IMG/VR virus record: IMGVR_UViG_3300014204_000122
Span: 32,001 to 96,000 of that record
Length of the DNA stretch: 64,000 nucleotides
Direction: 5' to 3' (one strand)
Source of the DNA: a virus
Taxonomy: Duplodnaviria > Caudoviricetes
Made by a program: the position numbers and the translations under genes. Shown piece by piece: positions 8,901 to 54,387 of the stretch (its first letter is position 1; each line of letters begins with the position of its first letter). The notes below the pieces were generated by a model. It did no database searches, had not been told where the DNA came from, and worked only from the letters and a program-made list of their open reading frames with translations.

Positions 8901-11691
8901 CAATTAATTCACCTAAAGTAACAGCATTTGGTCTTTTATATCTTAAAACACCTGCTGAATTATATCCAGAACCACGTTTACATAAATTCCCTAATGTTTT
9001 GTTTACTTTTTTATTTGAACCATTAGGACTGAATAAATTACCATTTATATTAAATGCCCCAAGATAGTCTAAGGTATCATGTAATTGTGACTCTAGCTTA
9101 ATAGCAACATCTGGTAAATTGTTAGTTGCATTAACATTTATGTTATTACTATGTACTGCATTACCAAGAGGAATATAATCCCATCTTTCATTTTCTTCGA
9201 ATGGAGCATTTTTGTGTATTAATATATTATTTATTGGATCATATGCAAAATATGTTGACGTTATTCCAACTATTGTAAGATATTCTGGTATTACACCAAC
9301 AAAACCTTCACATGTACTTCTAACTAATCGAGGATTATTAAAATCTGTTAAATCGATAAATATATATTCAAATTCAGCAATATTAATCTTTGTATTATCA
9401 ACATTTATTGTTATTCCGCTCCACTCTCCTATTAGTCCATTACTTCCCGATAAAGATATATCATTTATTGTAAGATTTGATGGCATTTTTAACCATCCAT
9501 TATTTGATTTAATAACTAAATCTCCAACTCTCCAATTTGTAATACCATCAAGCTCTGTTGATCCTGCTACTGATACTTTCCAAGCATAACCGGGAATTAA
9601 AGTTCCATCTATAGGAGGAGTATTTGTATCAGCATCCCAATCACCCTCCATTCTAATTATATTCCCTAAAATATTTTCAACTGCTTCATCTATATAATCA
9701 GACGTTGCTAATTTATCATTATTTCCCGTTGAACCTTCTGCTAATGCTGTTGGTAATATATTTTCAGTAGTAATTATTTTAAAATTATCATCAAGAACTA
9801 AATTACTATTATTTATTATTAAATTATTATATTCTAAAGAAATATATCTAGTATCTCCGTGATCGGCGGTATTTAATACATAATTATTATCAACAACAAA
9901 ATCACTTGCAGTTATAACATATTTATATATTTTATTATTTTCTCTACAAAAAACCAAAGGATAATCTAAAGTTTCTATATCAGTTTTTAAATCAAAACCA
10001 TAAATATGTGTATTAAAATATTCTTTATTTTCTGTACCAATTAAAATAAAATTATTTAAAGAAACATTTGTTAATTTTGTTAACTCATCTGCTGTAGATT
10101 TAAATCCTACTATATTGGCAAAAGAGACTTTAATATTTTTAGAGTTAGTTAAATCTATAAAATCAGTATTTATATTTAAATCTGTATATAGAACTGTTCC
10201 CGCTATTTGGTTATCTGTTATAAAAATATTTGTTATAGTTAAATTACTTTTAACTAAATTATTTCCTAATAAAGTACAATTAGAATTAATTACATAATTT
10301 AAATTTCCTGTAGTTTTATAAAAGATAGTACTTTCTATTATATTATCTTTAAAATCAGTTAAAACAGCATTTAAATCAGTTAAAACAGTGTTTTTAATAG
10401 CTAACTTTCCTTTTTCAAAAAAAGTAACTTCTAACAATAAAGATTTATCAACTATTAAGTTAATTTTATTATTAAAAGTAATAGTTTTATTAAAAAAACA
10501 AGTATTAAAAGAAAGAGTTTGATTATTTCCAAAATAACTAATAGTATCTAAATCAAAATCAAAATTTATATTAATAAATTCTAATATACCAGTATTAATT
10601 TTTTGTTCTAATGTTCCAAACGGATTTCTTAAACTACTTGTTATTGTTGTAGTTAATTCATAAATGGAAACTGGGTTTATATCACTTGTAGTATAAACAA
10701 ACTTATCTCCACTTGATGCAATTGGATAAAACAAATAATCTATAGAGTTTTGAATAAAATAACCTTTATAAAAATCTGTTGTTGTATTAAATGAAGTAGA
10801 AGTTATATTATATTTAAAGGGAATTAAAGCATCAGGCACTGAACCATCTAAAGAAAGACTTTCTGTTAAATTATTTCCTTGTATTCTTACCCTACTATTA
10901 CCTATAAAAGTAATTGTAGATAAATAATCTATTATTTGTTGGTTTATTTCAAAACTACTATCATCTAGAATAATTGTTACTATTATATCATTTAAAATAG
11001 TAGTATATGATAAATCTTTAAAAGCTCTTTGTAAGGTTTGATAAGGTGTAGAAACTTCTCCTGTACCTGATAAATCATTTCCTATAGCAGATATATAAAT
11101 ATCAAAACTAGTTGAAATAAAAGAAGTTAAACTATTGTTGAATTCTATTTTTTCAATATTATCACCGTTTACGTTTGCTTTTGTTTCTCCTATATTAAGA
11201 AAAGTTTCTCCAATATACATGTATAATTCAGCAGTTCCTGGAATAGGGGAGCTGGTTAATTCTTGATAATATATACCTGATTCATATTGAAAAACCCAAT
11301 TTCTAGAATCATCTATTGGAATTCTTAATCCTGAATTTTCTTCATATATTTTTACTTCATATTTATATCCAAAAGTAGGAGAGACAACGTTATTTACTCG
11401 AGTACCAGCTACTATACCATATTCAGGAATATTAATAGAGTGTGTTGCAAAATAAGCATGATTGTTTGAAGTTTCATCAATACTTAAATTTACCGTAAGT
11501 TTTAATACAACATTAGCTGCTTCTGCAACAACAGGATCAGGATCAATTGTTTCTGCAAAAATTGCACTAGAAGGTAAGTTAAAAAAATAACTTTCTTTTT
11601 CGTTTCCCAACTCTTTAGAGTTATCCGTATGGGATTTTCCTAATAAGTTTTTAAAAGCAATATTTGTTTTTGTTGTATTTTCTAAAGACAT
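5995..11691 (-). CDS. large tail fibre / receptor-binding protein
   Basis: 1898 aa. Two 'GND..G.G....PY.T'-type beta-helix starts, GDWDADTNTP and DRGSYNP fibre repeats, NNLSDV motif, C-terminal beta-helix. Confidence 0.65.
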   Translation of the reverse strand: MSLENTTKTNIAFKNLLGKSHTDNSKELGNEKESYFFNLPSSAIFAETIDPDPVVAEAANVVLKLTVNLSIDETSNNHAYFATHSINIPEYGIVAGTRVNNVVSPTFGYKYEVKIYEENSGLRIPIDDSRNWVFQYESGIYYQELTSSPIPGTAELYMYIGETFLNIGETKANVNGDNIEKIEFNNSLTSFISTSFDIYISAIGNDLSGTGEVSTPYQTLQRAFKDLSYTTILNDIIVTIILDDSSFEINQQIIDYLSTITFIGNSRVRIQGNNLTESLSLDGSVPDALIPFKYNITSTSFNTTTDFYKGYFIQNSIDYLFYPIASSGDKFVYTTSDINPVSIYELTTTITSSLRNPFGTLEQKINTGILEFININFDFDLDTISYFGNNQTLSFNTCFFNKTITFNNKINLIVDKSLLLEVTFFEKGKLAIKNTVLTDLNAVLTDFKDNIIESTIFYKTTGNLNYVINSNCTLLGNNLVKSNLTITNIFITDNQIAGTVLYTDLNINTDFIDLTNSKNIKVSFANIVGFKSTADELTKLTNVSLNNFILIGTENKEYFNTHIYGFDLKTDIETLDYPLVFCRENNKIYKYVITASDFVVDNNYVLNTADHGDTRYISLEYNNLIINNSNLVLDDNFKIITTENILPTALAEGSTGNNDKLATSDYIDEAVENILGNIIRMEGDWDADTNTPPIDGTLIPGYAWKVSVAGSTELDGITNWRVGDLVIKSNNGWLKMPSNLTINDISLSGSNGLIGEWSGITINVDNTKINIAEFEYIFIDLTDFNNPRLVRSTCEGFVGVIPEYLTIVGITSTYFAYDPINNILIHKNAPFEENERWDYIPLGNAVHSNNINVNATNNLPDVAIKLESQLHDTLDYLGAFNINGNLFSPNGSNKKVNKTLGNLCKRGSGYNSAGVLRYKRPNAVTLGELIGSPDADIRHRLRNLQEYIYETGDTIDTEHWDNNGVKELIPVGKFTIHRLAIPVSNKLRVQIGQFLYDSISEALQAISTEQFIPEQNLNQNFLFRCALVVESGCTELNNETKARFMELDRFGNPNLGSSIGATTTMQQSYEVSAIPKIKLLQTKGAISYQTGDDMADIDNILEVWNKLGVGKFAVRGDGTVKGSDAVNDDEFVTKGQLTNATLGLFDDRGSYNPTITSKYPITGGSGTAGVIMKGDIWTISADGNINGIPVLIGYTVRALIDSPDDEVDANWSISNVGIGYIPLKPSNNLSDVSSQQTALNNVTGVSSAEIGQVLYKNNGGDVDWKDSTIVNLSHSLFVDSVFGDDISGDGTILFKYKTLDKISTLTNKWSGTQIATKTSGSRVITNISDVDYNLMEVGDSFAYGSGLVYNTRIITKDGGLENAKSVTTSQTQSTGGFMPVWIRHYTVYCKGNFVPTTNLAKEGMRWVFKGSQISWGDLTLFNISDTWHSDYILEGGLFIGTHANSRFINCVGQNANFKYYQDCEIYSSTSTTWLIQIGTQSSTQYGFYDIKGIIRNMLGRAIAFSDAKYLNLEAKIYGLLQGVSLYSVGNAICNVDIETPSPAYAYSINNAYNILNGRVQGDIYISGTGGKTICNARTTGSINLIYGYFYLNGWSSCDSPSALNIDSNSECTVNGTFAGRFVNMAGRLNFNSTTVISVLQGSNITGGVLEINCPISVVSQITQTGGIINYRSDAGPGHYSVPLVNISSGELNFLGKITRESATVPSIIQSGGIVRIGNMPFVNTSGWLITKSGGTLIFLNSYLKTNGKSPILCTANTSASKDIYVLGCTTNCDKITHGLKLAFGKIITITVTADNLLTSFNFFDGTNTTAISYDGLGLGKTKNEIATEITALINAITPMLTRTAMVVNNVITVSGIGEGDILASSLVNATTVVTVPLNYNPNPIIENQLNEDVTYNLG

Positions 11692-42495: not shown

Positions 42496-44457
42496 TTAAA
42501 TGTATTTGTAAATATCATCTTCAACAGAAATTCCCCATGTTTCATCAGTAATATCGTTTGATAATTCTATATTATTATATTCTTCATAGAACCATAATGA
42601 ATATATTTGATTTTTTTTATCTTGAAATATAAAACCATAATCATAAAATACCATATCGTTATATCCTTCTTTAATATAATCTAATTCTTCAATTATTTCA
42701 TAATTTTCATTTGCTTTAATAAGATTATAATTTTTTTCTATAAATTTTATTTTCTCTGTACTATTTGTGTTAATTACTGTTGAAAAAGGGTAAAGATTTC
42801 TGATTGCAGAATTAGTATTAGTAGGACCATCATAATAAACGGTTTTAGAATCTTCATCAATTTTAACATGATCTTCAATAAATTTATTTTTTATAATATA
42901 ATTTGAATATTTATTTATAAGATATTCTTCAACTTTTTCAGATACAGTTGGAATGAGAATCCAAACTATTTTTTTTTCTTCGTCAACTTTAATTATTTTT
43001 TCTAATCTTTCATCTAATTTAATAGGTTTAATATATTTTGAATATGCCATTTGGCTATTTTCCAAAATAGGTGTTTTATTAATATTTTTATTATAATAAT
43101 CTTCTAAATTTTCTTCAGATTCAAAATATTTAATTTCACTTTTAATTGGATTAAAATTAACCATTTCTCTTCCTTTAATAATTATACCATCATATCCTAG
43201 TTTTAACATTTCAACTTCAATAGTAGTATCTTTACGAAAATCTCTTTTGTCTTTATATTTTTTTGCTATATTACCCCAAAACCAAATTTCCCAATCATTT
43301 AATGTATTAAAAGTTTTAGGGTTTTTAGGAATAGCACCTAATACAAAATGAATCTTACCAAAAGGTTTAGCCATTTGATGATTAGATAAACAAGCTGTAT
43401 ATAAACCATCTCCTAACATTGCTCCACCACCGTTAGGGACTCCTTTTTCTCTCATTCCTCTAACTGTAACGTTTTTACGTTTCCATTTTAAATAATCAGA
43501 GTGAACATCTTCTAATAAATTTTCTTTTTTTAATAAAGATGTATGTTGTATAGTTTTTTCTCCATCTTTAGTAGGTTCAGAATAAACTATTTTTTCAGGA
43601 TTAACTACATATGTTTGATCTTTAAACATATCAATATATTTTTGTCCCTTTCCAGATTTTAAATAAGCTATTGTCGAATGTGGATTGTAATCAGGATAAT
43701 CAGAATGATAAGGAAAAATATCTGTTAATTTTTTATTTATTGAATTTAAAATATTTTTTTTAGAATTATGCTCTCTACATTCAAATTTTAAAACATCATA
43801 TTCTTTATTCTCAAAACATGATATATTATATAATTCTAAAGCTGGTATTTTAAATTCCAAAATACAATCAATTATATCTTTATAACTTTCTATTTCTTTT
43901 GTTTTAAATCCATATAATAATGTTGTGTGTGGTTCAGTCTCTAAACCAAAAGTAGGTTTGTCATATATATCTTCAGTATTTATTTTTTTTTGAATTTCTT
44001 TTAATTTATCAAAATTAAAAAACAACATAGCACATCCATATTCATATTTAGGCTTAGTTCTTTCTTCTAATAATACTTTTTTATTAGTAAGTTTCTCTAA
44101 CATTTCTACCATTGTTTTAACCTTTGATGGATTAAAACTTGATTTCACAGTGGTTGATACTAAATCTTTTCTAATATATCTTTGTATTTTATCATCTAGA
44201 TAATTTTTATCTTGTTTAGAAATTTTCTTTTTAATTATTCTTTCTATAATGTCAATAAGAGTTCTAGAATATGTTGAAGGTGAAATATTTCCTTTATTTA
44301 CTCCAGTTCCTAATTTAATCATCTTGTTTTGATCTTTTTCATTTAAATTCCCAATAGTATTAGCTTCTGGTATAGTTCTTTTAACGGCAGCCATTGCTAT
44401 ATTTAATATAACAAATCCTTGGTTATCATCTGAGGGAATAGGATAATTAATATTCAT
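42496..44457 (-). CDS. polyvalent protein: leader module, Acb1/T4 57B-like 2H phosphoesterase, ART-like domain, further domains
   Basis: MVEMLEKLTNKKVLLEE; GCAML, EPHTTLLYG and YNPHSTIAY (two HxT motifs); RG...GDGLY...A..FG...GYDGIIIKGREMVNFNP. Confidence 0.7.
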   Translation of the reverse strand: MNINYPIPSDDNQGFVILNIAMAAVKRTIPEANTIGNLNEKDQNKMIKLGTGVNKGNISPSTYSRTLIDIIERIIKKKISKQDKNYLDDKIQRYIRKDLVSTTVKSSFNPSKVKTMVEMLEKLTNKKVLLEERTKPKYEYGCAMLFFNFDKLKEIQKKINTEDIYDKPTFGLETEPHTTLLYGFKTKEIESYKDIIDCILEFKIPALELYNISCFENKEYDVLKFECREHNSKKNILNSINKKLTDIFPYHSDYPDYNPHSTIAYLKSGKGQKYIDMFKDQTYVVNPEKIVYSEPTKDGEKTIQHTSLLKKENLLEDVHSDYLKWKRKNVTVRGMREKGVPNGGGAMLGDGLYTACLSNHQMAKPFGKIHFVLGAIPKNPKTFNTLNDWEIWFWGNIAKKYKDKRDFRKDTTIEVEMLKLGYDGIIIKGREMVNFNPIKSEIKYFESEENLEDYYNKNINKTPILENSQMAYSKYIKPIKLDERLEKIIKVDEEKKIVWILIPTVSEKVEEYLINKYSNYIIKNKFIEDHVKIDEDSKTVYYDGPTNTNSAIRNLYPFSTVINTNSTEKIKFIEKNYNLIKANENYEIIEELDYIKEGYNDMVFYDYGFIFQDKKNQIYSLWFYEEYNNIELSNDITDETWGISVEDDIYKYI

Positions 44458-44461
44458 TGTT

Positions 44462-44899
44462 TTATTTATCTTCTAATAATACTTTTTTGTTAGTAAATTT
44501 TTCTAGTTTTTCTATTAAAACTTCTAGATTTTTATTAAAATTTTCAACATAAATATATTTTTTTACATTACTATGCTCTTCTATCTCTTTTTTCGTAAAT
44601 ATAAGCGCATTAGAAGCAATATTAAATGTTCCGCCTACTTCTCTAGGGCAATTTTCTAAACTCTTTAAATCATTATTAAACACATTAAAATCGCCTGTGA
44701 CAGAAATAAAATTAACAGGAATTTCTTTTAAACTGCAATTAGGAAGCTCTATACTGCCATTAACTCTAACTTGATAATCAGAATAATAATCTTTTAATAT
44801 ATTTAATTGTTCTAACTCTATATTTCCTTTATATAATAGTTCATTGTGGATTTTATCACTAGTTATAGTAACATTTTGATCAAAAATTTCTTTTTTCAT
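44462..44899 (-). CDS. LRR-like repeat protein with the leader module at its C-terminus
   Basis: Likely start ATG 44899 (MKKEIF); VTGDFNVFNNDLKSLENCPREVGG; ends LIEKLEKFTNKKVLLEDK. Confidence 0.6.
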   Translation of the reverse strand: MKKEIFDQNVTITSDKIHNELLYKGNIELEQLNILKDYYSDYQVRVNGSIELPNCSLKEIPVNFISVTGDFNVFNNDLKSLENCPREVGGTFNIASNALIFTKKEIEEHSNVKKYIYVENFNKNLEVLIEKLEKFTNKKVLLEDK

Positions 44900-45030
44900 T
44901 TTAAATTTGTTTTTTAAAAGTAAAGGTGGCGCTTTTAAACAGACAACCACCTTTTTAACTCATTAAGCTCATAACCATAATTAAATATTAAAAAAAATAA
45001 AAAAATTATATATTTAAAAATAAAATTAAC

Positions 45031-45690
45031 ATGAAAGAGATACAATTAGCCAAAATACTTGTAGATTATTACGAAAACAAAGGATATGAATGTTATAAAG
45101 AAGTGAGTTCATCAGGTAGTGGTGGATCTAAAAGAGCTGATTGTTATTTTATAAAAAAAGAAAATGGAGAAATAATTGATTCTTTTTCAGTTGAAACTAA
45201 AATGACACTGGGATTAAATGTTATAGAACAAGCTTATAAGTGGAAACCTCAAGCAAAACGTGTATATGTGGGAGTTCCTCGATTGAAAAGAAAACCTGTA
45301 AAAGCAAGAAAGTTTGCAATGTTTGTTTGCAATAAATTAGGCATAGGTATTATTGAAATAGCAAAAGGAGATATTAAAATTATACAAGAGGTAGAAGATA
45401 ATTTAAAATATAAAATGCCACCATTATATGAAGAACAAAAAAAATCTAAAGCAGGAAATGCAAAATCTCAATTTTTTACAAAATATAAAAAAACTATAGC
45501 TAATATAGATAAATTTATGAAAGACAAAAAAGAATATAGTTTAAAAGATTTATTAAATCAAATAGAACATCATTATTCAAATAATCTTTCAGCACATGGA
45601 TGTATAATAAAGTATATTAAAAAGGGAATTATAAAAAATTATACTACTAAAAGAGGAAATAAGTGTATAATGTTAGTTAAAATTAAATAA
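45031..45690 (+). CDS. PD-(D/E)XK nuclease-fold protein (MmcB-like)
   Basis: E..L, YKEV, RADCY, SVETK, VIEQA, VYVGVP, LGIGII. Confidence 0.65.
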   Translation: MKEIQLAKILVDYYENKGYECYKEVSSSGSGGSKRADCYFIKKENGEIIDSFSVETKMTLGLNVIEQAYKWKPQAKRVYVGVPRLKRKPVKARKFAMFVCNKLGIGIIEIAKGDIKIIQEVEDNLKYKMPPLYEEQKKSKAGNAKSQFFTKYKKTIANIDKFMKDKKEYSLKDLLNQIEHHYSNNLSAHGCIIKYIKKGIIKNYTTKRGNKCIMLVKIK

Positions 45691-45691
45691 G

Positions 45692-45773
45692 TTCCCACGA
45701 CAGGATTCAAACCCGCATTTTCAACATTCAATTACGTATACTTGATCCGTATTCAAGCTCGGTTACGTAGGAA
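45692..45773 (-). tRNA. atypical tRNA-Arg(ACG)-like RNA lacking a D-arm
   Basis: Acceptor TTCCTACG/CGTGGGAA; anticodon arm CTTGA-ATACGGA-TCAAG; T-arm GCGGG-TTTGAAT-CCTGT; only 8 nt between acceptor and anticodon stems. Confidence 0.55.
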
Positions 45774-45786
45774 TAAAAATAAAAAG

Positions 45787-45882
45787 TCTAGTGTGAGGGA
45801 TTCGAACCCTCGGATAATACTACCTGTGTACCACCGCACGCTTCCAAGACGTGCATCTTAAACCTAACTCGACCAACACTAG
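45787..45882 (-). tRNA. tRNA-Pro(UGG) with long variable arm
   Basis: CTAGTGT/ACACTAG + A73; CACGT-CTTGGAA-GCGTG; GAGGG-TTCGAAT-CCCTC; variable arm GGTGGTAC/GTATTATC. Confidence 0.8.
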
Positions 45883-45892
45883 TTATAATTAG

Positions 45893-45964
45893 TAGCCCTA
45901 GATTGATTCGAACAATCATCAAGTCATTCGTAGTGACCCATTCTATCCGTTGAACTATAGAGCC
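45893..45964 (-). tRNA. tRNA-Arg(ACG)
   Basis: GGCTCTA/TAGGGCT; GGTCA-CTACGAA-TGACT; GATTG-TTCGAAT-CAATC. Confidence 0.9.
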
Positions 45965-45973
45965 TCAAATTTG

Positions 45974-46058
45974 CTGATTAGGTACGACTCGAACGTACAA
46001 GCTCTTTACGAGCACTTGCTTCAAAGACAAGTGTGTTTACCAATTCCACCACTAATCA
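45974..46058 (-). tRNA. tRNA-Gln(UUG) with Leu-like body and long variable arm
   Basis: TGATTAG/CTAATCA + G73; CTTGT-CTTTGAA-GCAAG; variable arm GCTC-GTAAA-GAGC; GTACG-TTCGAGT-CGTAC. Confidence 0.8.
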
Positions 46059-46064
46059 ATATTG

Positions 46065-46137
46065 TATCCATAGATGGGTTTGAACCACCGACCGCCAAGG
46101 TATAAGCTTGGAACTCTGACCACTGAGTTATATGGAT
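46065..46137 (-). tRNA. tRNA-Ile(UAU)
   Basis: ATCCATA/TATGGAT + A73; CCAAG-CTTATAC-CTTGG; GGTGG-TTCAAAC-CCATC. Confidence 0.9.
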
Positions 46138-46160
46138 ATATTTCAATTAACTTAATCTAG

Positions 46161-46235
46161 TCGAGGTGGTGAGATTTGAACTCACGAACCGACGTTTCCA
46201 GGACGCCGTTGTATAACCATCTGCATAACACCTCG
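46161..46235 (-). tRNA. tRNA-Pro(UGG) with C33 and A37
   Basis: CGAGGTG/CACCTCG + A73; GGCGT-CCTGGAA-ACGTC; GTGAG-TTCAAAT-CTCAC. Confidence 0.75.
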
Positions 46236-46248
46236 TTATATTTTTTTG

Positions 46249-46319
46249 TTGTCTTACAAGGATTCGAACCTTGAATACCTGGATCAAAACCAGATGTGTT
46301 ACCATTACACTATAAGACA
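46249..46319 (-). tRNA. tRNA-Gln(UUG)
   Basis: TGTCTTA/TAAGACA; TCTGG-TTTTGAT-CCAGG; CAAGG-TTCGAAT-CCTTG. Confidence 0.92.
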
Positions 46320-46391
46320 ATATATTTTAAAATCTAATTCTATGTTTCTCTGTCTATCGATCCTTTAAATTAGTAACGGTCTCCTGTATCG

Positions 46392-46467
46392 TCTAGGTAG
46401 TGAAATTTGAATTCACGTGCTCTGCATCCCAAATGCAGCGAGATAAACCTGACTCCTCTATACCTAG
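46392..46467 (-). tRNA. tRNA-Pro(UGG)
   Basis: CTAGGTA/TACCTAG + A73; CTGCA-TTTGGGA-TGCAG; GTGAA-TTCAAAT-TTCAC. Confidence 0.88.
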
Positions 46468-46490
46468 TTATATATTTTTAAATTTTAAGC

Positions 46491-46527
46491 AAAAAAAAAT
46501 CTCAATCAAATTACTGATTGAGATTTT
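46491..46527 (-). terminator. attenuator terminator upstream of tRNA array 1
   Basis: Minus strand AAAATCTCAATCA-GTAATT-TGATTGAGATTTT ending in a U9 tract, between the leader ORF and the first tRNA. Confidence 0.85.
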
Positions 46528-46559
46528 CTATTAAAATATGAAATATTAACGTAAAACTT

Positions 46560-46649
46560 TTAAATTTTAATATTCAATTTTAAACATGACTCAATCAGGC
46601 TGCTTCTGCGCGGCTGTTGAGGTATTTGTATGTTTAAAATTGCGTTCAT
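46560..46649 (-). CDS. attenuation leader peptide 1, MNAILNIQIPQQPRRSSLIESCLKLNIKI
   Basis: 29 codons, below the track cut-off. Control run ATA CAA ATA CCT CAA CAG CCG CGC matches the downstream Ile/Gln/Pro/Arg tRNAs. Contains CTGATTGAG, complementary to the terminator 5' arm. Confidence 0.8.
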   Translation of the reverse strand: MNAILNIQIPQQPRRSSLIESCLKLNIKI

Positions 46650-46663
46650 TTTGTTTATTTTAT

Positions 46664-46762
46664 TTTTAAATATTACTTTTTTATTTATTTATTATTAATA
46701 TAAGAAATTATTTTTGTTTTATTTCTATTTTGATACCCTAAAGATATATTTTTTTATAATAC
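46664..46762 (-). promoter_or_regulatory. 99-bp promoter region, copy 1 (tRNA array 1)
   Basis: Matches 50124..50222 except at 3 positions; contains TTTCTTATATTA and AATATTTAAAA motifs on the minus strand. Confidence 0.75.
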
Positions 46763-46766
46763 AAAC

Positions 46767-47180
46767 CTAATATTTTGAATTATTTTTTAACACTATACCA
46801 TTTTTATAAACTTCATACTCATAAAAACGAGGTAATCCATATTTTAGAGCTTCTGCTAAATCTGTCCATTCTTCTTCAGAAACCATATCATCTGGATAAG
46901 AAAAATTACCTTTTAAATGAGCAGGTATAGGTCTTAAATTAACTAAAACTAATTCACCTTCACCACCTTTAACATCTATTGCTAATTCTTCTGTGCTCCA
47001 ATCTGATTTAGTATCGATAATTTCTTCAACTCTATCACGAATTTCTTTTTGTGTATAAATTTTAGGTGTTGGAGGATCAGGAAACATATCTTCTTTCAAA
47101 ATTATTTTTTTTCCTGAAATTCTTTGTAATTTTTCAGTAAGCAATTGTATCTCTAATTGTTTTTCCTTTTCTGATTTCAT
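46767..47180 (-). CDS. leader-tagged hypothetical protein
   Basis: MKSEKEKQLEIQLLTEKLQRISGKKIILKE plus a unique domain. Confidence 0.75.
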   Translation of the reverse strand: MKSEKEKQLEIQLLTEKLQRISGKKIILKEDMFPDPPTPKIYTQKEIRDRVEEIIDTKSDWSTEELAIDVKGGEGELVLVNLRPIPAHLKGNFSYPDDMVSEEEWTDLAEALKYGLPRFYEYEVYKNGIVLKNNSKY

Positions 47181-47181
47181 T

Positions 47182-47568
47182 CTATTTTTCTTCTATATCT
47201 TCAATTTCTACATCACTATTTTCAAAATCTATAGGTTCTACACTTATTTGTGGTTGAGTTTCTTCTCCCTCTAATGCTTTATCAACACTGATAATTTCAC
47301 AAGAAACTATGTTAGTGAATACTTTTAATCTTTTATCAATTGCATTTTTAAGTTCTTCTTCTGAAGGTTCAAGATTATTTGTAATTATAATTTTACCTTC
47401 AATAAGAGTAGGTTCAAACCCTTCAAATAAAACAGATACTTTAAATAAATAAGTAATATTGTTCCAATAACTATTCATTTCTGTAAAAACTACTTTCTTG
47501 CCAGATATTCTTTGAATTTTTTCTGTAAGTAATTGTATCTCTAATTGTTTTTCTTTTTCTGTTTTCAT
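47182..47568 (-). CDS. leader-tagged hypothetical protein
   Basis: MKTEKEKQLEIQLLTEKIQRISGKKVVFTE plus a unique domain. Confidence 0.75.
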   Translation of the reverse strand: MKTEKEKQLEIQLLTEKIQRISGKKVVFTEMNSYWNNITYLFKVSVLFEGFEPTLIEGKIIITNNLEPSEEELKNAIDKRLKVFTNIVSCEIISVDKALEGEETQPQISVEPIDFENSDVEIEDIEEK

Positions 47569-47580
47569 TATTGTTTATAG

Positions 47581-47838
47581 TTATACAGTTATTTTATTCC
47601 AAAAATCATTTAATTTTTTATCTGCACCCACTGCTAATTGAATTATGTCTTTAGATATAGGTCCTCCTATGATTTTAGCTGATTCTATAATGGCTTTTAA
47701 TTTTTCTGCTACTATTAAAATATCTTTTATATTATTAGTGGCTTCGTTTTCTTTTAAAACTACTTTCTTGCCAGATATTCTTTGGATCTTTTCAGTAAGT
47801 AATTGAATTTCTAATTGTTTTTCTTTTTCTGTTTTCAT
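47581..47838 (-). CDS. leader-tagged hypothetical protein
   Basis: MKTEKEKQLEIQLLTEKIQRISGKKVVLKE plus a unique domain. Confidence 0.75.
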   Translation of the reverse strand: MKTEKEKQLEIQLLTEKIQRISGKKVVLKENEATNNIKDILIVAEKLKAIIESAKIIGGPISKDIIQLAVGADKKLNDFWNKITV

Positions 47839-47844
47839 TATTAA

Positions 47845-48261
47845 TTAAATACTGATTGTTTTTACTTCTTGAATATTTAGTTTTCCTGGAACTACTATAA
47901 AAGTAACATTTTCACAAGTCCATTTATCATAATCATCGAATGATTCATGTTTGCACTCTTCAATAAGCTCTAAAGCATCTTCTGATTCTTTTTTATCTAT
48001 AAGAGTTAAAAAATTAAGTAAGGCAATTTTTCTATTGATTCCTTTTACATAACTTATTTCTGAAACGTCTGCATTTCCTGAATTAGATTGTGAATAAACA
48101 GTAAATATTTTTTCTTCTTCTTGAGGTTCTCCTGGTTCCATAAGTTCTTCGATAATATCTTTGTCTTCACTTTCTGTAAAAACCACTTTCTTGCCAGATA
48201 TTCTTTGAATTTTTTCTGTAAGTAATTGTATCTCTAATTGTTTTTCTTTTTCTGATTTCAT
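47845..48261 (-). CDS. leader-tagged hypothetical protein
   Basis: MKSEKEKQLEIQLLTEKIQRISGKKVVFTE plus a unique domain. Confidence 0.75.
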   Translation of the reverse strand: MKSEKEKQLEIQLLTEKIQRISGKKVVFTESEDKDIIEELMEPGEPQEEEKIFTVYSQSNSGNADVSEISYVKGINRKIALLNFLTLIDKKESEDALELIEECKHESFDDYDKWTCENVTFIVVPGKLNIQEVKTISI

Positions 48262-48296
48262 TTTATTTATATTTTAATTATTTACTTTAAATATAA

Positions 48297-48920
48297 TTAA
48301 TTTGGTTTTCCTACTAAAATTTTATAATGTTTTTCACCTGCAATGTCTCTTAAATACCAGCCTTCTTTTATATTAGATCCTTTAGGATTCTCTCCAACCC
48401 ATGTTACTTTCTTTCCTAATACTTGTTCTACTTCTTGTTGATTGTTTATAATAGGTACATTATATCTTTCTAGAACTTTCATTATTCTATTATCAACTTC
48501 ACAATAAAAACCTTGATTCTTTACTTTATTTGCAGCTCTTTCAAAATAAGATATAATAGAAGCTCTTGCTCCATCGTGTCCTACTCCTACTAATTTAATA
48601 CCGTGTTTAGTATTTTTTCCAAAATATAATACATCTATATCAGGATCTTGATCTATATCTACTACTTCTACATAAGAAAAATCATCATTTGATAAAATAT
48701 CATTTGTTGACTTTATATTACTATGACCTCCAATTTGAGAATATGCTATATTAATAAGTTCAAGAAATTCATCTACTAGTTCTGGGTGAGATTTTATATT
48801 GATTTTCTCCCACTCATGTTTTTTTAATCCTAATTTTGATGATTCTTTTTCTATAAGAATGACTTTGCTTTTAGAAATTTTTTCTAATTTTTCAATTAAT
48901 AATTGTAAAATAGGTTTCAT
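48297..48920 (-). CDS. leader-tagged hypothetical protein
   Basis: LQLLIEKLEKISKSKVILIE; body LINIAYSQIGGH...DIDQDPDID...GVGHDG...GWYLRDIAG. Confidence 0.7.
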   Translation of the reverse strand: MKPILQLLIEKLEKISKSKVILIEKESSKLGLKKHEWEKINIKSHPELVDEFLELINIAYSQIGGHSNIKSTNDILSNDDFSYVEVVDIDQDPDIDVLYFGKNTKHGIKLVGVGHDGARASIISYFERAANKVKNQGFYCEVDNRIMKVLERYNVPIINNQQEVEQVLGKKVTWVGENPKGSNIKEGWYLRDIAGEKHYKILVGKPN

Positions 48921-48985
48921 TTATAGCATTTTATTATAAATATAGGAAAGTAAAATATAAAAATTAAATTTTATAATATTTTTTG

Positions 48986-49068
48986 TACTCTAGGTCAGAC
49001 TCGAACTGACACGCTTGAGGGCGACGACGCTTAAAATCGTTGTGTACTACCAATTTCACCACTAGAGC
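48986..49068 (-). tRNA. tRNA-Leu(UAA)
   Basis: GCTCTAG/CTAGAGT + A73; ACGAT-TTTAAGC-GTCGT; long variable arm; GTCAG-TTCGAGT-CTGAC. Confidence 0.88.
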
Positions 49069-49073
49069 ATTTG

Positions 49074-49155
49074 TGATCTAAGAGAGATTTGAACTCTCAC
49101 TATTTACATAATTAGCTTCTTAAACTAACGTGTCTACCAATTCCACCATTAGACC
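49074..49155 (-). tRNA. tRNA-Leu(AAG)
   Basis: GGTCTAA/TTAGATC + A73; TTAGT-TTAAGAA-GCTAA; Leu-type D-arm GTGGAATTGGTAGACAC. Confidence 0.85.
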
Positions 49156-49163
49156 ATATTTTG

Positions 49164-49253
49164 CGGAAGATGAGGGGGTCGAACCCTCGTAACGGTTTTT
49201 AAGCGTCCTAATTGTTTAGCAAACAATCCTCTTTACCATTTGAGTAACCTTCC
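49164..49253 (-). tRNA. tRNA-Ser(GCU)
   Basis: GGAAGGT/ATCTTCC + G73; ATTGT-TTGCTAA-ACAAT; long variable arm. Confidence 0.9.
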
Positions 49254-49265
49254 ATTTTATTTTTG

Positions 49266-49340
49266 TAGATTAGAAGGGAGTCGAACCCTCACTGAATAGT
49301 TTCTAAAACTATTGCCTCTTAACCATTGGGCTACTAATCC
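49266..49340 (-). tRNA. tRNA-Leu(UAG) with short variable loop
   Basis: GGATTAG/CTAATCT + A73; ATAGT-TTTAGAA-ACTAT; variable loop only TCAGT. Confidence 0.82.
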
Positions 49341-49354
49341 ATTTATATTTTTTG

Positions 49355-49445
49355 TACTCCAGGTCGGACTCGAACCGACAGTGTTTTCTCAATGAGTGTC
49401 ACCGTTTAAAAGTGATGCGTTTCAACCAAGTTTCGCCACTGGAGC
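49355..49445 (-). tRNA. tRNA-Leu(UAA)
   Basis: GCTCCAG/CTGGAGT + A73; TCACT-TTTAAAC-GGTGA; GTCGG-TTCGAGT-CCGAC. Confidence 0.88.
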
Positions 49446-49464
49446 ATATTTATTTTTTTATTTG

Positions 49465-49537
49465 GGTGAAAACGGGGCTCGAACCCTGTCCTAGATATTC
49501 ACAGTATCTCATGCTAACCAATAACACTATTTTCACC
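49465..49537 (-). tRNA. tRNA-His(GUG)
   Basis: G-1 GTGAAAA/TTTTCAC C73; AGATA-CTGTGAA-TATCT. Confidence 0.85.
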
Positions 49538-49546
49538 ATATATTTG

Positions 49547-49639
49547 CGGAAGAAGTAGGATTCGAACCCACACACCCCTAAAGGCCCTCGGTTTTCAAGA
49601 CCGCCGCCGCTACCCTGCAAGCTTTCGGCTTATTCTTCC
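49547..49639 (-). tRNA. tRNA-Ser(UGA) with enlarged D-loop
   Basis: GGAAGAA/TTCTTCC + G73; CGGT-CTTGAAA-ACCG; long variable arm; D region GCCG-AAAGCTTGCAGGGTAG-CGGC. Confidence 0.8.
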
Positions 49640-49653
49640 ATTTTTTTATTTAG

Positions 49654-49743
49654 GGTGAAAGACGAGTCACGATCTCGCATTAAGTTGTTACACTATTCCA
49701 GAACCACAATCTGGTCGGCATCCAATTACCGGCTACTAACACC
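49654..49743 (-). tRNA. atypical tRNA-His(GUG) with long variable region
   Basis: G-1/C73; acceptor with two T-T mismatches; CCAGA-TTGTGGT-TCTGG; T-arm GCGAG-ATCGTGA-CTCGT; 19-nt variable region. Confidence 0.6.
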
Positions 49744-49831
49744 ATATATTTTTAAAATAATATTATAAGCCGTACACTTTTCACAGTCGCTATGGGTTTC
49801 AACCATTTAGTACTTATAATATTATTTAAAG

Positions 49832-49915
49832 CGGAAGAAGAGAGATTCGAACTCTCGAAGCTTTTACACCCAGTTGTTTTCAAAACAATGTCCTCATGCC
49901 TACCGGATTTCTTCC
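49832..49915 (-). tRNA. tRNA-Ser(UGA)
   Basis: GGAAGAA/TTCTTCC + G73; TTGT-TTTGAAA-ACAA; GAGAG-TTCGAAT-CTCTC. Confidence 0.85.
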
Positions 49916-49960
49916 AAATTTATTTTTTTTACAATTATTTCAATGAACTATATACAAACA

Positions 49961-50000
49961 AAAAAAACCCTTGATCAATTTATTTAGATCAAGGGTTTTT
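49961..50000 (-). terminator. attenuator terminator upstream of tRNA array 2
   Basis: Minus strand AAAAACCCTTGATC-TAAATAAATT-GATCAAGGG followed by a U tract. Confidence 0.85.
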
Positions 50001-50026
50001 AATATTAACTTTTAAAATTATAGAAA

Positions 50027-50119
50027 TTATCTTTTCGTTAAATCATACCTTGATCCACATCTGCTACTTGATAACAGGTGTAAATGCGATAACAACGATA
50101 TGATAACTATTTTTTTCAT
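50027..50119 (-). CDS. attenuation leader peptide 2, MKKIVIISLLSHLHLLSSSRCGSRYDLTKR
   Basis: 30 codons. Twelve consecutive Ser/Leu/His codons match the downstream tRNAs. Contains GGATCAAGG, complementary to the terminator 5' arm. Confidence 0.8.
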   Translation of the reverse strand: MKKIVIISLLSHLHLLSSSRCGSRYDLTKR

Positions 50120-50123
50120 TTTC

Positions 50124-50222
50124 TTTTAAATATTACTTTTTTATTTATTTATTATTAATATAAGAAATTATTTTTGTTTTATTTCTATTTTAATGCTCTA
50201 AAGATATATTTTTTTATAATAC
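50124..50222 (-). promoter_or_regulatory. 99-bp promoter region, copy 2 (tRNA array 2)
   Basis: Direct repeat of 46664..46762 (96/99 identical by manual comparison). Confidence 0.75.
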
Positions 50223-50247
50223 TAACCAAATTATTTTAAATTATTTT

Positions 50248-50892
50248 TTATTTCATTACATATAGTTGGTATTTTCCTTTAGGAAATTCTTTAATTTCTT
50301 CAGGTGTATTAGCTGTTGCTAAAACCTTAGTTAATGTTCCAACATAGTAAGGATTATAAATTTTTGCTTTTCTATTATAAAGAGATGGAAGTTTAGTTGT
50401 ACCATTTCCATCATCAAATAAATATAAATCTCTATTATCTTTTAAATATTCTTCTGTTTTTCCTGAACCTGATAAAATAATTGTTTTATCATTTCCCACA
50501 AGTTTAAGTAAAAAATATGCTGTCTTATTTTGCACAAACTCATTATTTAATGGATTTTGCGTATCAATTTTACTATCTGAATTTAAACAAGCTATTTTTA
50601 TTCCTTTCTTTTCTTCTTCTAATATAATACTTTTATTAGATAATGTTGAAAATGCACTTTCATTTAGCACTTCAAAAACCAATATACCGTTACCACCAAA
50701 TTTTGAATTATTTCCTACTAATTGTCCCTCTTCATCAAATCCTAAATGAGACCAACCATCTTCTTCTAATTCTTTTTTAAATTCAGGATCTAATTCAACC
50801 TCTTCTTTTAAAACTACCTTCTTACCAGATATTCTTTGAATTTTTTCAGTAAGCAATTGTATTTCTAGTTGTTTTTCTTTTTCTGATTTCAT
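50248..50892 (-). CDS. leader-tagged hypothetical protein
   Basis: MKSEKEKQLEIQLLTEKIQRISGKKVVLKEE; internal VLNE and IILEE. Confidence 0.75.
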   Translation of the reverse strand: MKSEKEKQLEIQLLTEKIQRISGKKVVLKEEVELDPEFKKELEEDGWSHLGFDEEGQLVGNNSKFGGNGILVFEVLNESAFSTLSNKSIILEEEKKGIKIACLNSDSKIDTQNPLNNEFVQNKTAYFLLKLVGNDKTIILSGSGKTEEYLKDNRDLYLFDDGNGTTKLPSLYNRKAKIYNPYYVGTLTKVLATANTPEEIKEFPKGKYQLYVMK

Positions 50893-50896
50893 TATT

Positions 50897-51466
50897 TTAT
50901 ATTTTATTTATTATTAAGTTTTCAGGAATATCAACTATATATTCTCCTGATGTTAAAGGGTCCAAAAATAAAAGTCCTCTTGGAGTACTTAAAACTAATT
51001 CTTTTCTTTTAGTTTGCGATGGATTTGAAATAAACCCTAAAACTTTTCCTACTTCAAAACTATTATAACCATTATATCCTATATATTGGTTTTGTTTAAG
51101 TAACCACAAACCTCCTGTTTTATCTAAATTTTTAATATGATCTTTAATACTATTATTAGATGTAAATTCTTCCTCAAAACTATCACCCATATCAGGATGT
51201 ACAATTAAAGGATTTTTAACTAAAGGTAATTTAACTTTATAATCAGGATATATTTTTTTAAAATATTCTAATACTTCAATTTTAATAGGAGTATTTTTTA
51301 AATTAATTATTTTATTTTCTTCATTAATATTATCAATAAAATTTTTTATTCGTTCTTCTATTTTAACAGGTTTGGCATGTTTAGAGTAGTAAACATAATC
51401 ATCTTCCAAAATAACCTTTTTATTAACAAGGTTTTCTAATTTTTCTATTAATATATTTATGTTCAT
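50897..51466 (-). CDS. leader-tagged hypothetical protein
   Basis: ILIEKLENLVNKKVILED, then YSKHAKPVKIEERI (similar to a segment of 42496..44457). Confidence 0.7.
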   Translation of the reverse strand: MNINILIEKLENLVNKKVILEDDYVYYSKHAKPVKIEERIKNFIDNINEENKIINLKNTPIKIEVLEYFKKIYPDYKVKLPLVKNPLIVHPDMGDSFEEEFTSNNSIKDHIKNLDKTGGLWLLKQNQYIGYNGYNSFEVGKVLGFISNPSQTKRKELVLSTPRGLLFLDPLTSGEYIVDIPENLIINKI

Positions 51467-51468
51467 TA

Positions 51469-54387
51469 TTATAATTCGTTATAATTTTCTTCTGCTTTTT
51501 CTAATTTTGGAGATAATTTTTTAATTTTCTCTTTTATTTTTTCAATTTTACTATTTAAATCATTCATTTCTCCTCCTATTTCATTAGCAACATTTTCACC
51601 TTCACTTTCGCCACCCTTTTCTATTGCTTGAGGAATTAATTCTTCTTGATCTATATATAATTGTCTTAATTCTCTTTTATAATCTTCTAATTCTCTTTCT
51701 AAGTCATCCATCTCATATCTAAGATTATCATATTTCTCCTCAACCCTATCTTTTCTGATTTGTTTATTTTTTTCTATTCTTTCACTTCTTTTATTTGCTA
51801 TATCATAATCAGATACTGTTATGCTTCTATCAAATTTTCCATTTACAAAAGGAGACCAACCTCTTTCAGTTCTTATATGTTTAATATCGTTTATAAATTT
51901 TATTGTACCTATAGGAATTACTGGTTTTGTATTGTTTTCTTTTGAAAAAACAGATTTTCTAGATTCTATTAAACTAGCACTAGAATTTGAATAAGAGAAT
52001 TTTTTTTCTTCTTCTATTTGCTCATATTCTTCTCTTGTAATGATTTTTGTTTCAACTTTAACTATTTCTATATATTCAGATAAATTTTCTTCCCATTTTT
52101 CTAACGCTGTTTTTTCTATTTCCTCTGCTTCTTTTTTAGTTAATATAACATCATTATAATCTCCAGCTATAATATCACATTGACATCTACCTACACTATC
52201 TATCCATTCTGCAACAACAACAAATCCTTTTATATCTTCTATTTTGTTTAATTTATTTATTTCATAAGCAGGGACTTCTTTAAACCCAGTAAATTTAGGT
52301 TGTTTTAATTTTTTAAATTGAGTAGCTTCTAATAAATCATCTTTTTTTTCAACTACATAATATTGATACGCATTATCTATCTCTTCAATAGAAGGCTTTG
52401 CTTTTTCAGAATATTGATCTCTAGTTATTCCTTTATCATCTAAAGCGTGTATTTTTTTCCAATCTTCATCATTATATTCTTCACCCTCTTCAGTTATTAC
52501 ATCATCTTCTTGGTTTTCTTGATTTAAAAGATCTTTATATTTATTAATAGAAATAGGAAATGCTCTAACGTTTGAAGTGTTATAATTTTCTGGATTATTA
52601 CTTTTCCATGTTTTTAAAGCTTTATTACACAGTTCATCTGCTTCTTCGTATGATACACCTTGTTCTGTAGAGTGTATTATATCCCATTTTTCTTCACCAT
52701 CTTCTGTCCATTTACATATAGCAACATATGAAGTTTTTATTATATCTTTTAGATTTCCATCAGAAATAATAGATGATTCTTCAATAATACCTTTTATGTC
52801 TTCTATAATATATTCTGTATAAGATTTTAAATCTATAGGGTTTAACTTTTCAGGTTTTATATTTGTTAAATAAGATATTATTTTTATTCCTTTTTCAGAA
52901 TCTTTTATAAAAGAATCAAAATCAGATATTTTTTTATTATTATCTTTTAATTTTTTTATTATATTTTCTTTTTCTTTTATAAGAATTTGGTCAAATTCGC
53001 TCAAACTAATATATTCTCTTTCTTTTTTATCTAATTCTATTAATTCTTCTTTGGAATTTACTACTGTGTCAGATATAATACTATTTTTATATTGAACTTT
53101 TATTTCTGTGAATGGTTTACCAAATTCAAAATTGGTATTTTCAAAAGCTTCCTCAATTGTTTTTCCTTCTCCTATTTGCTCTGATTCTTGTTCTACAAAA
53201 CTGCTTTCGTGATCTCTTACTACAATATTCCATCTATAATTAACCAAATATAAATCTTGATTTCTATTATATTCAAAACTATAACAATCATCGTTCTCAA
53301 TTGCTTCTTGATCTTCATCAGACATAATACGAGGTTTTCCTCCAATTAAATCATCATTATAAGTTAATAATGTTTCTATTAATAATTCATCGTTAGAAAC
53401 AATTTTATTTTTAAATAAATTAGAAGTAATAAAAGAGGGAAGATTATCATATTCTAAATTAATATATTTTTCACAATCATCAGGATCTTTAATTATAGTC
53501 AGTAACAAATTACAACGCTCATCAGAATTTAAAATTTCCCAATCTTTATTTGTAATTAAACTATTTTTATTTTCTTCTACAACATAAAGATTATCAGTTT
53601 CTTCTGTTAAACTTTTTACCAAAGATTCTTTTACTTCTTTTTCTACATCTTTTTTAATATCTTCAAAATTCTCAATAAATTCTTTAGTACAAGTGCCTCC
53701 CGTAATTGTAACCCTATCTGTTTGATTATAATGTAACTTATCAGCAGAGTATATATGATCTATAATTTCAGAAACATCTTTGCCCCATTTTTCTTCTATT
53801 AAATTAAAAATTCTAATTAACTCGTCACTTTCTAATTTATCGAACTTCTCCCATATTTCAACTAACCAATTTTCTATAGGGTAAAGTTCATCAAGACTAT
53901 ATATCTTGTTAGAGTTTATTGATTCTTCAATAACATCATTTGATTTTAATAAAGCTTTATTTAATCCTTGCATAGTAATGTCTATATTATCATTTACTGT
54001 AAAATTATCACCTGCAATAACATTTGTTCCTTCTAAAACAACAACACCATAACCACTATCACCATCAGGTTCATTATCATTTACATTTTCTTTTAATAAT
54101 TCCCAAGCTTTAAGAATACCATTTTCAGTAAACTCTTCTGTTTCTTCACTATAATCACTACCAACATCTCCAGTGAAATCATAAAAAAATACACATACCT
54201 CATTAATCATTTCTTCTAAACTATCGAAAGGTCTAATTGCTACACTTTCATCGTTCCAATAAATAAAAGAATAAGGACTAGCCTCTTCTTCTTCTAAATA
54301 TTCAAAACCTTTTACTTGTTTTTCGTTTGTTGTTATATGAATTGTTTTATAATCATAATGATTTGGAAAACCTGCGTATATTTTCAT
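51469..54387 (-). CDS. large acidic multidomain protein (putative internal head polyprotein)
   Basis: 972 aa, Glu-rich, with repeated I/L-x-E linkers, an internal duplicated domain and a C-terminal coiled coil. Confidence 0.55.
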   Translation of the reverse strand: MKIYAGFPNHYDYKTIHITTNEKQVKGFEYLEEEEASPYSFIYWNDESVAIRPFDSLEEMINEVCVFFYDFTGDVGSDYSEETEEFTENGILKAWELLKENVNDNEPDGDSGYGVVVLEGTNVIAGDNFTVNDNIDITMQGLNKALLKSNDVIEESINSNKIYSLDELYPIENWLVEIWEKFDKLESDELIRIFNLIEEKWGKDVSEIIDHIYSADKLHYNQTDRVTITGGTCTKEFIENFEDIKKDVEKEVKESLVKSLTEETDNLYVVEENKNSLITNKDWEILNSDERCNLLLTIIKDPDDCEKYINLEYDNLPSFITSNLFKNKIVSNDELLIETLLTYNDDLIGGKPRIMSDEDQEAIENDDCYSFEYNRNQDLYLVNYRWNIVVRDHESSFVEQESEQIGEGKTIEEAFENTNFEFGKPFTEIKVQYKNSIISDTVVNSKEELIELDKKEREYISLSEFDQILIKEKENIIKKLKDNNKKISDFDSFIKDSEKGIKIISYLTNIKPEKLNPIDLKSYTEYIIEDIKGIIEESSIISDGNLKDIIKTSYVAICKWTEDGEEKWDIIHSTEQGVSYEEADELCNKALKTWKSNNPENYNTSNVRAFPISINKYKDLLNQENQEDDVITEEGEEYNDEDWKKIHALDDKGITRDQYSEKAKPSIEEIDNAYQYYVVEKKDDLLEATQFKKLKQPKFTGFKEVPAYEINKLNKIEDIKGFVVVAEWIDSVGRCQCDIIAGDYNDVILTKKEAEEIEKTALEKWEENLSEYIEIVKVETKIITREEYEQIEEEKKFSYSNSSASLIESRKSVFSKENNTKPVIPIGTIKFINDIKHIRTERGWSPFVNGKFDRSITVSDYDIANKRSERIEKNKQIRKDRVEEKYDNLRYEMDDLERELEDYKRELRQLYIDQEELIPQAIEKGGESEGENVANEIGGEMNDLNSKIEKIKEKIKKLSPKLEKAEENYNEL

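Follow-up and report, generated by a model that had tools for sequence, protein, structure and literature searches.

A probable leader-peptide attenuator in front of a phage tRNA array

Attenuator leaders are known from hisL, leuL, trpL and pheL, and multivalent ones, which read several amino acids through a single leader peptide, from ilvGMEDA (Ile/Leu/Val) and thr (Thr/Ile). The pheL attenuator is treated in PMC3082878. Such enterobacterial multivalent leader-peptide attenuators of amino-acid operons are the closest known systems to the element analysed here, leader 2 of the viral contig IMGVR_UViG_3300014204_000122, a short open reading frame (ORF) followed by an intrinsic terminator in front of a tRNA array (array 2). 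The analysed stretch (the window) is 64,000 nt long and comprises bases 32001–96000 of this 136,569-bp contig, which has a G+C content of 26% and an estimated completeness of 63%. Positions are those of the window unless marked as genome positions, and genome-wide counts take in the whole contig. The genome holds three tRNA arrays, each behind a leader of its own, and leader, terminator and array are together called a cassette.

The phage cassette resembles the enterobacterial attenuators in its short ORF with a run of regulatory codons, in its mutually exclusive protector, antiterminator and terminator, in the position of the intrinsic terminator just before the regulated genes, in the read-out of ribosome speed that it would perform, and in the polling of several amino acids per leader. 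It differs from them in that tRNAs instead of biosynthetic enzymes would be regulated, with a product that would act directly on the sensor, and in that nine codons of leader 2 poll five isoacceptors where the enterobacterial leaders repeat one or two codons. The cassettes are, moreover, phage-encoded and modular (one upstream block, three leaders), they have no Shine–Dalgarno sequence, and cassette 3 has no protector. T-box riboswitches are similar in that the status of a tRNA sets the choice between terminator and antiterminator upstream of genes for the translation apparatus, but T-boxes bind one uncharged tRNA directly and without translation, whereas the phage cassette would sense through an ORF. 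Large sets of tRNAs able to replace those of the host are described for T5-like and other phages (PMC10264068, PMC11555353), and leader-peptide control of such arrays was not found mentioned in the literature searched.

Full-text literature searches likewise returned no published account of leader-peptide control of tRNA genes. The present system differs from the enterobacterial attenuators in having tRNAs as the regulated product, in the polling of many codons and isoacceptors, in the modular framework and in the phage setting. The reason for large phage tRNA sets has been debated for decades, and tRNA genes are, to our knowledge, taken to be controlled at promoters. A leader-peptide attenuator before tRNA genes would, if true, amount to direct feedback from decoding speed to tRNA synthesis, and phage tRNAs would be an inducible response and not a constant supplement, which bears on ideas of both codon compensation and counter-defence. 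The compact design, in which leaders are exchangeable behind one upstream block and the terminator is copied into the leader, is for this reason open to tests with simple reporters, and it could also serve as a natural sensor of the availability of chosen tRNA species.

Control codons and alternative folds of leader 2

Judging from its sequence and from models of its folding, we read leader 2 as probably a transcription attenuator of the ribosome-mediated (leader-peptide) kind, with read-through into the phage tRNA array under its control; the tRNAs of array 2 would probably be made only when the codons of the leader are decoded slowly. This reading is built on the observed anatomy and statistics of the cassette, on its alternative folds in silico and on the co-variation of leaders with arrays. 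An attenuator had been proposed in a sequence-only reading of the window, and the anatomical features of one are present in the sequence: a short ORF, a run of cognate codons, an intrinsic terminator, an antiterminator that excludes it, and a protector that overlaps the control codons (Table 1). The design recurs in two sister cassettes and in related phages.

Array 2 consists of nine tRNA genes that encode Ser, Leu and His tRNAs only, in the order Ser(UGA), degenerate His-like, Ser(UGA), His(GUG), Leu(UAA), Leu(UAG), Ser(GCU), Leu(AAG), Leu(UAA). The sequence-only reading had placed twelve control codons for these amino acids in an ORF running from 50119 to 50027, and they are found exactly at codons 8–19 of that ORF (50098–50063). 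Nine distinct codons are sampled, as it had counted (TCG twice, TTG, TTA three times, CAT, CAC, CTG, TCA, AGT and AGC). Under strict wobble all twelve are assigned to Ser(UGA), His(GUG), Leu(UAA), Leu(UAG) and Ser(GCU), each encoded in the downstream array, so that five of the six anticodon species of array 2 are polled; Leu(AAG) alone is left without a control codon, again as proposed. The proposed match of codon to tRNA at the level of isoacceptors thus holds for leader 2, and it recurs in the sister cassettes.

The 12-codon Ser/Leu/His run is the longest in the genome over all six frames, the next longest being 10 codons. With such codons making up 21% of triplets in the six frames, about 0.002 runs of at least 12 codons are expected genome-wide. 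Five of the 12 control codons are rare by the usage of the phage's own genes, where 1.1 would be expected (P=0.002), and half of them end in G or C compared with 12% of codons in phage genes. By this excess of rare and of G- or C-ending codons, the control run is unlike ordinary coding sequence. The start of the ORF, by comparison, is like that of phage genes generally: it lies in an A-rich context without a Shine–Dalgarno sequence, in a genome whose genes start within A-rich sequence and in which a Shine–Dalgarno-like motif is found for just 6 of 83 long ORFs.

That the ORF instead encodes a small functional peptide, membrane-bound or signal-like, followed by the terminator of its own gene, is very improbable. 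The leader 2 product does resemble a signal peptide, with Met-Lys-Lys followed by a hydrophobic stretch, but it has no lipobox and its codon choice is unlike that of phage genes. The products of leaders 1 and 3 and of the leaders in related phages are not hydrophobic and have no sequence in common with it beyond the first residues, and a peptide function would not make leader composition track the downstream tRNAs. That leader 2 yields a lipoprotein or signal peptide was rejected on account of the missing lipobox and the unlike sister leaders.

The terminator of leader 2 (−17.6 kcal/mol) carries a run of eight T at 49967–49960, and its 5′ arm lies 27 nt from the leader stop codon. The antiterminator strand, GGATCAAGG at 50056–50048 (segment 2), pairs over 9 bp (one G-U) with CCTTGATCT in the terminator 5′ arm (−11.2 to −11.8 kcal/mol). 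This confirms the antiterminator named in the sequence-only reading, and among 1000 dinucleotide shuffles of the leader 2 region 8 show complementarity as good as this. A protector had also been proposed, and one does form in the free RNA, where the control-codon region (50107–50071) pairs with the distal leader (50067–50026) and part of the antiterminator strand is occupied; the two duplexes originally suggested for it, however, are replaced by other registers in the minimum-energy fold. Its helices are 50098–50093/50040–50035, 50091–50088/50049–50046, 50085–50079/50059–50053 and 50077–50071/50067–50061.

Because in the complete RNA the terminator is equally probable at equilibrium wherever the ribosome is placed, the switch was modelled on the transcript as it stands ahead of 3′-arm synthesis, with a stretch of 31 nt kept single-stranded around the A-site at each codon in turn. 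With no ribosome on leader 2, the minimum-energy fold is a long imperfect protector hairpin with the terminator 5′ arm unpaired. With the A-site at codons 1–18, the antiterminator is the minimum-energy structure, and with the A-site at codons 19–30, segment 2 is covered and the 5′ arm is free.

In the mechanism that we propose, transcription would begin in the shared upstream block and a ribosome would translate the 30-codon leader behind the polymerase. Scarcity of any polled Ser, Leu or His aminoacyl-tRNA would stall this ribosome inside the control region, which would open the protector and leave segment 2 free to pair with the terminator 5′ arm as it emerges. With these two strands paired no terminator would form, and the polymerase would pass a boxA-like motif and enter the nine tRNA genes. 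Under fast decoding, the ribosome would already cover segment 2, heading for the stop codon, during synthesis of the terminator, and the polymerase would stop at the T-run; without translation, the protector would form and the terminator would win. Because the products of the array are the tRNAs that the leader needs, the arrangement would exert negative feedback on tRNA supply, and together with the two sister cassettes the circuit would span 20 amino acids in three blocks.

Leaders and arrays across cassettes

The three cassettes of the genome have a common upstream block. Over the 121 nt before its start, leader 2 shares 94% identity with the corresponding block of leader 1 (46664–46779) and 76% with that of leader 3, and TATCTTTAG, preceded by TTG or TTTG, is conserved in each of these cassettes as well as in the related phage G002. 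Despite this common block the leaders differ among the cassettes, and each matches its own array. Leader 1 holds the longest run of array-1 codons in the genome (8 codons), and its antiterminator complementarity is equalled in 0 of 1000 dinucleotide shuffles. In the footprint model it switches as leader 2 does, from the antiterminator with the A-site at codons 1–14 to a free 5′ arm at codons 15–22. Leader 3 is the sole 23-codon window genome-wide that is built of array-3 codons and includes all 15 array-3 amino acids. Taken together, the three control regions use all 20 amino acids with no overlap among regions, and they poll 24 of 25 anticodon species. The division extends to isoacceptors: ATA and CGC stand in leader 1, whose array encodes Ile(UAU) and Arg(ACG), and ATT and AGA stand in leader 3, matching Ile(GAU) and Arg(UCU).

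Related viral contigs were collected from an alignment of the large terminase (TerL), and tRNA searches in them, together with the regions retrieved, contributed four more cassettes to give seven in total. In G002 (TerL 74% identical), the same upstream block precedes a 21-codon leader, a terminator and a boxA-like motif; the leader run reads Leu-Glu-Val-Leu-Glu-Gln-Leu-Gln-Glu-Gln-Leu-Leu, and the array encodes Leu(UAA), Glu, Glu, Leu(CAA) and Gln. In G004 (TerL 56% identical), a Pro/Ile/Thr/Val/Glu/Asp/Ala leader stands before Pro, Glu, Asp, Pro, Ala, Ile(GAU) and Val, a second cassette has a leader run made up solely of Gln and Ser(AGT) codons, followed by Gln, Gln and Ser(GCU), and a third cassette is weaker. 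The relatives sort their tRNAs into arrays differently, and the leader codons follow their own arrays.

In a 7×7 comparison of leaders and arrays, six of the seven cassettes have their longest run of matched codons on the diagonal, and the observed total of leader–array matches is reached by the true pairing alone (1 of 5040 permutations). The terminators follow the same pattern. The 3′ part of the leader pairs with its own terminator arm at −11 to −12.4 kcal/mol in five of the seven cassettes and far less with the other arms, and this own-arm complementarity is equalled in 6 of 5040 permutations. The distance from stop codon to terminator 5′ arm is 23–34 nt in all seven, and the four cassettes of the relatives also switch between both states in the footprint model. 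Homologous arrays without the ORF or without the complementarity had been named beforehand as what would speak against an attenuator, and for the cassettes seen the comparison came out in its favour.

Other routes to relatives gave less. The first TerL relative (L005/G001) has no tRNAs, and the contigs around the TerL homologues P0007 and P0004 have a T4-like head module with no tRNAs within 10 kb. No close relatives were found through a neighbouring 214-aa protein, nor with the upstream block as a DNA pattern in the viral and metagenome contigs searched, and BLAST of the locus against GenBank phages gave matches at the level of tRNAs only.

The position of the control codons bears on whether the run might instead act as a T-box-like riboswitch, pairing directly with tRNA anticodons without translation. 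Like a T-box, the element lies ahead of genes with a role in translation, combines a terminator with an antiterminator and presents codons that belong to the tRNAs in question. The control codons, however, lie in frame within an ATG-to-stop ORF in seven of seven cassettes, a search of 44000–52000 against Rfam gave no match to the T-box or any other riboswitch family up to E = 1, and a complement of the tRNA 3′ end and a Stem I architecture were not noticed in the folds, neither having been specifically searched for. A T-box-like mode of action is on this evidence extremely improbable, and the T-box identity of the leader 2 element was rejected on the absence of a covariance-model match in that interval.

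The same attenuator might serve defence sensing and not homeostasis of tRNA supply, as a sensor that detects the cleavage or depletion of host tRNAs by anticodon nucleases (of the PrrC, RloC, retron, PARIS and Schlafen types) and induces only the replacement block. The division of 20 amino acids by three leaders into separately inducible blocks that poll nearly every anticodon species speaks for such a role, as does the rescue of infection by phage tRNAs from tRNA-targeting defences, reported in PMC10264068 and PMC11555353. On the other side, no defence or counter-defence gene was tied to the cassettes, and the trigger (scarcity of host tRNA for rare codons, poor charging or cleavage by an anticodon nuclease) is not distinguishable from sequence, which cannot separate depletion by a nuclease from the other two. 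We consider this role rather unlikely. Somewhat better placed, though still tentative and short of an even chance, is a wider proposal in which the cassettes form a modular sentinel of host decoding capacity. Interchangeable leaders would act as rosters, each tRNA block would be made only on slow decoding of its own codons, including after the action of a tRNA-cleaving defence, and the pool would regulate itself by isoacceptor over 20 amino acids.

Entry into array 2 and the weight of the evidence

The T-run of the leader 2 terminator is 45 nt from the first tRNA gene of array 2, and no promoter-like sequence is evident in the interval between terminator and first tRNA; array 2 is therefore most simply reached by read-through. 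The interval contains an 11-nt boxA-like motif. The pattern GTTC-W-TTGA-M-A, derived from its two genomic sites, has only two matches in the genome, at 49938–49948 of the window and at genome position 122930–122940, each closely following the terminator of a leader (arrays 2 and 3); about 0.6 chance matches are expected from base composition, and a close variant stands at the same place in G002 (L090 about 1489–1500). A boxA-like motif before structured untranslated RNA genes in arrays 2 and 3 and in G002 recalls boxA/Nus antitermination of the rrn type. The motif was identified by its likeness to boxA alone, and any action of it would follow the decision between termination and read-through and not replace it.

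A second element, a non-tRNA spacer, lies within the array behind its first Ser tRNA. It measures about 60 nt (49745–49830, minus strand), includes a perfect TATAAT and is flanked by the two arms of an AT-rich inverted repeat of 15 bp. Between this phage (G000) and the related phage G003 (L093 about 1125–1215) its sequence is almost unchanged, conserved beyond the surrounding tRNAs. The spacer could be a processing site or a small RNA, to judge from its sequence, or it could be an internal promoter, as taken up below.

Both elements would fit a simpler arrangement, in which the terminator is fixed and leaky or marks the boundary of an upstream unit, the array is entered through protein or Nus/boxA-type antitermination or from an internal promoter, with a small ORF that is incidental. 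The boxA-like motif that closely follows the terminator in arrays 2 and 3, the conserved TATAAT-bearing spacer inside array 2 and a terminator that is always favoured at equilibrium all point this way. A fixed terminator, however, leaves unexplained why the longest Ser/Leu/His run of the genome is located where it is, why leader composition tracks the arrays in seven cassettes from three phages, and why each leader contains a copy of the 3′ arm of its own terminator. A boxA element is, moreover, compatible with an attenuator and does not replace it. We accordingly regard the fixed terminator as improbable.

Several observations nonetheless weigh against the attenuator or limit how it can work. 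At equilibrium, the terminator prevails in the complete RNA whatever the state of the ribosome (P about 0.96). It follows that the switch has to be kinetic and needs coupling of transcription and translation in the host; in classical attenuators, likewise, the terminator is the equilibrium state and the choice is kinetic. With the A-site on the stop codon, the footprint model again exposes segment 2 and the antiterminator returns, and the off state therefore hinges on timing and on the protector re-forming. Read-through had been expected from a stall at every control codon, and this did not hold: a stall at the last of them (AGC, codon 19) covers segment 2 in the model and would favour termination. 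Leader 2 also has ATA at codons 4 and 7, upstream of the run, which is read by an array-1 tRNA, and given these two codons its sensing specificity is not absolute.

The comparative evidence has weak places too. For leader 3, the antiterminator does not stand out significantly from shuffled sequences (544 and 192 of 1000), and in the footprint model this leader is without a protector and its antiterminator overlaps the stop codon. Complementarity of the antiterminator is weak in cassettes G000-3 and G004-b, and in G004-b the match of codons is weak too. In G003, the nearest relative, the orthologue of array 2 has an ORF for a TnsA-like nuclease just before the first tRNA, then the contig ends, and an orthologue of leader 2 was not seen. 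Both Ser(UGA) genes of array 2 score low: the first (49833–49914) reaches 17.9 bits in Rfam, below the cut-off, and the second, at 31.8 bits, is also under the Rfam tRNA cut-off. Both nevertheless form complete cloverleaves with an acceptor stem identical to that of the clear Ser(GCU) gene, and the first is homologous to a Ser(UGA) gene in G003. By its sequence, the conserved spacer could also provide a promoter inside the array, from which the later tRNAs would be transcribed without passing the attenuator. Finally, we infer the promoter, the translation of the leader, the coupling of transcription to translation and the response itself.

tRNA genes, the phage and further observations

The features of cassette 2 and its sisters are collected in Table 1. 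ARAGORN run with introns at a low threshold gives mostly false calls, and it was used for three extra genes only.

Table 1. Features of the three cassettes (window positions unless noted)
Feature	Position	Strand	Remarks
Shared promoter-like block and A-rich 5′ leader	50120–50240	minus	putative promoter
Leader ORF 2	50027–50119	minus	ATG to TAA, 30 codons plus TAA
Control codons 8–19	50063–50098	minus	Ser-Leu-Leu-Ser-His-Leu-His-Leu-Leu-Ser-Ser-Ser
Protector (1:2) hairpin of untranslated RNA	50026–50107	minus	minimum-energy fold
Antiterminator strand (segment 2, codons 22–24)	50048–50056	minus	copy of terminator 3′ arm
Intrinsic terminator	49960–49999	minus	5′ arm 49999–49987, 3′ arm 49976–49964, 13-bp stem, 10-nt loop
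boxA-like motif, 11 nt	49938–49948	minus	between terminator and first tRNA of array 2; putative function
Probable tRNA-Ser(UGA), type II, first in array 2	49831–49915	minus	ARAGORN at lowered threshold only; perfect 7-bp acceptor stem
Degenerate tRNA-His(GUG)-like gene	49653–49742	minus	conserved 60-nt spacer upstream
Second tRNA-Ser(UGA)-like gene	49548–49639	minus	31.8 bits to tRNA clan (Rfam); ARAGORN
tRNA-His(GUG)	49464–49537	minus	
tRNA-Leu(UAA)	49355–49445	minus	Rfam 47.9 bits
tRNA-Leu(UAG)	49265–49340	minus	
tRNA-Ser(GCU)	49163–49253	minus	
tRNA-Leu(AAG)	49073–49155	minus	species without control codon in leader 2
tRNA-Leu(UAA), last of array 2	48985–49068	minus	
Sister cassette 1	46494–46649	minus	leader ORF 46649–46560, Ile(ATA)/Gln/Pro/Arg(CGC) run, terminator 46529–46494
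Array 1: Pro ×3, Gln ×2, Ile(UAU), Arg(ACG)	45786–46467		downstream of leader 1
Leader 3	genome position 122761		outside window

Some of the tRNA genes depart from the canonical form. The His(GUG)-like gene of array 2 at 49653–49742 has mismatches in the acceptor stem, an unusual T-arm and a long extra arm. In G003 the T-arm of the counterpart is canonical, and the copy in this phage may be decaying. In array 3, a 90-nt type-II-like tRNA gene at genome position 122958–123046 scores 34.6 bits in Rfam and is missed by default ARAGORN, and the sequence at genome position 125598–125672 is tRNA-like by eye only, with an anticodon loop that would read ACC; it was not detected by the tools, including ARAGORN at low threshold. 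A tRNA-Pro(UGG)-like gene of G004 (L094 2010–2141) has an apparent insertion of about 50 nt in its 5′ half, and Rfam matches model positions 6–65 only.

Small nuclease-like ORFs occur between tRNA genes or before arrays in the relatives, in G003 (L093 1284–1535) and in G004 (L094 about 10900–11240 and about 5050–5270). The first of these is the borderline TnsA-like ORF, with 26.1 bits in Pfam against a cut-off of 26.5. By their sequence, these ORFs may be mobile endonucleases invading the arrays.

In PHROG the contig matches a baseplate wedge protein, a tail fibre protein, a large terminase and a helicase, and it therefore belongs to a large tailed phage. Its TerL is at most 26% identical to those of GenBank phages, and the phage is therefore without a cultured relative. 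A TerL identical to that of the phage (protein P0001) is recorded on a contig of 192,988 bp, and a more complete assembly of the phage probably exists. Many otherwise unrelated proteins of the phage have in common an N-terminal segment of about 30 residues (window 46767–48261, 50248–50892 and others), with a related motif at other N-termini. Beside TerL in L006, L007 and L009, T4-type portal genes contain two or three intein insertions, with products of 1398–1826 residues.

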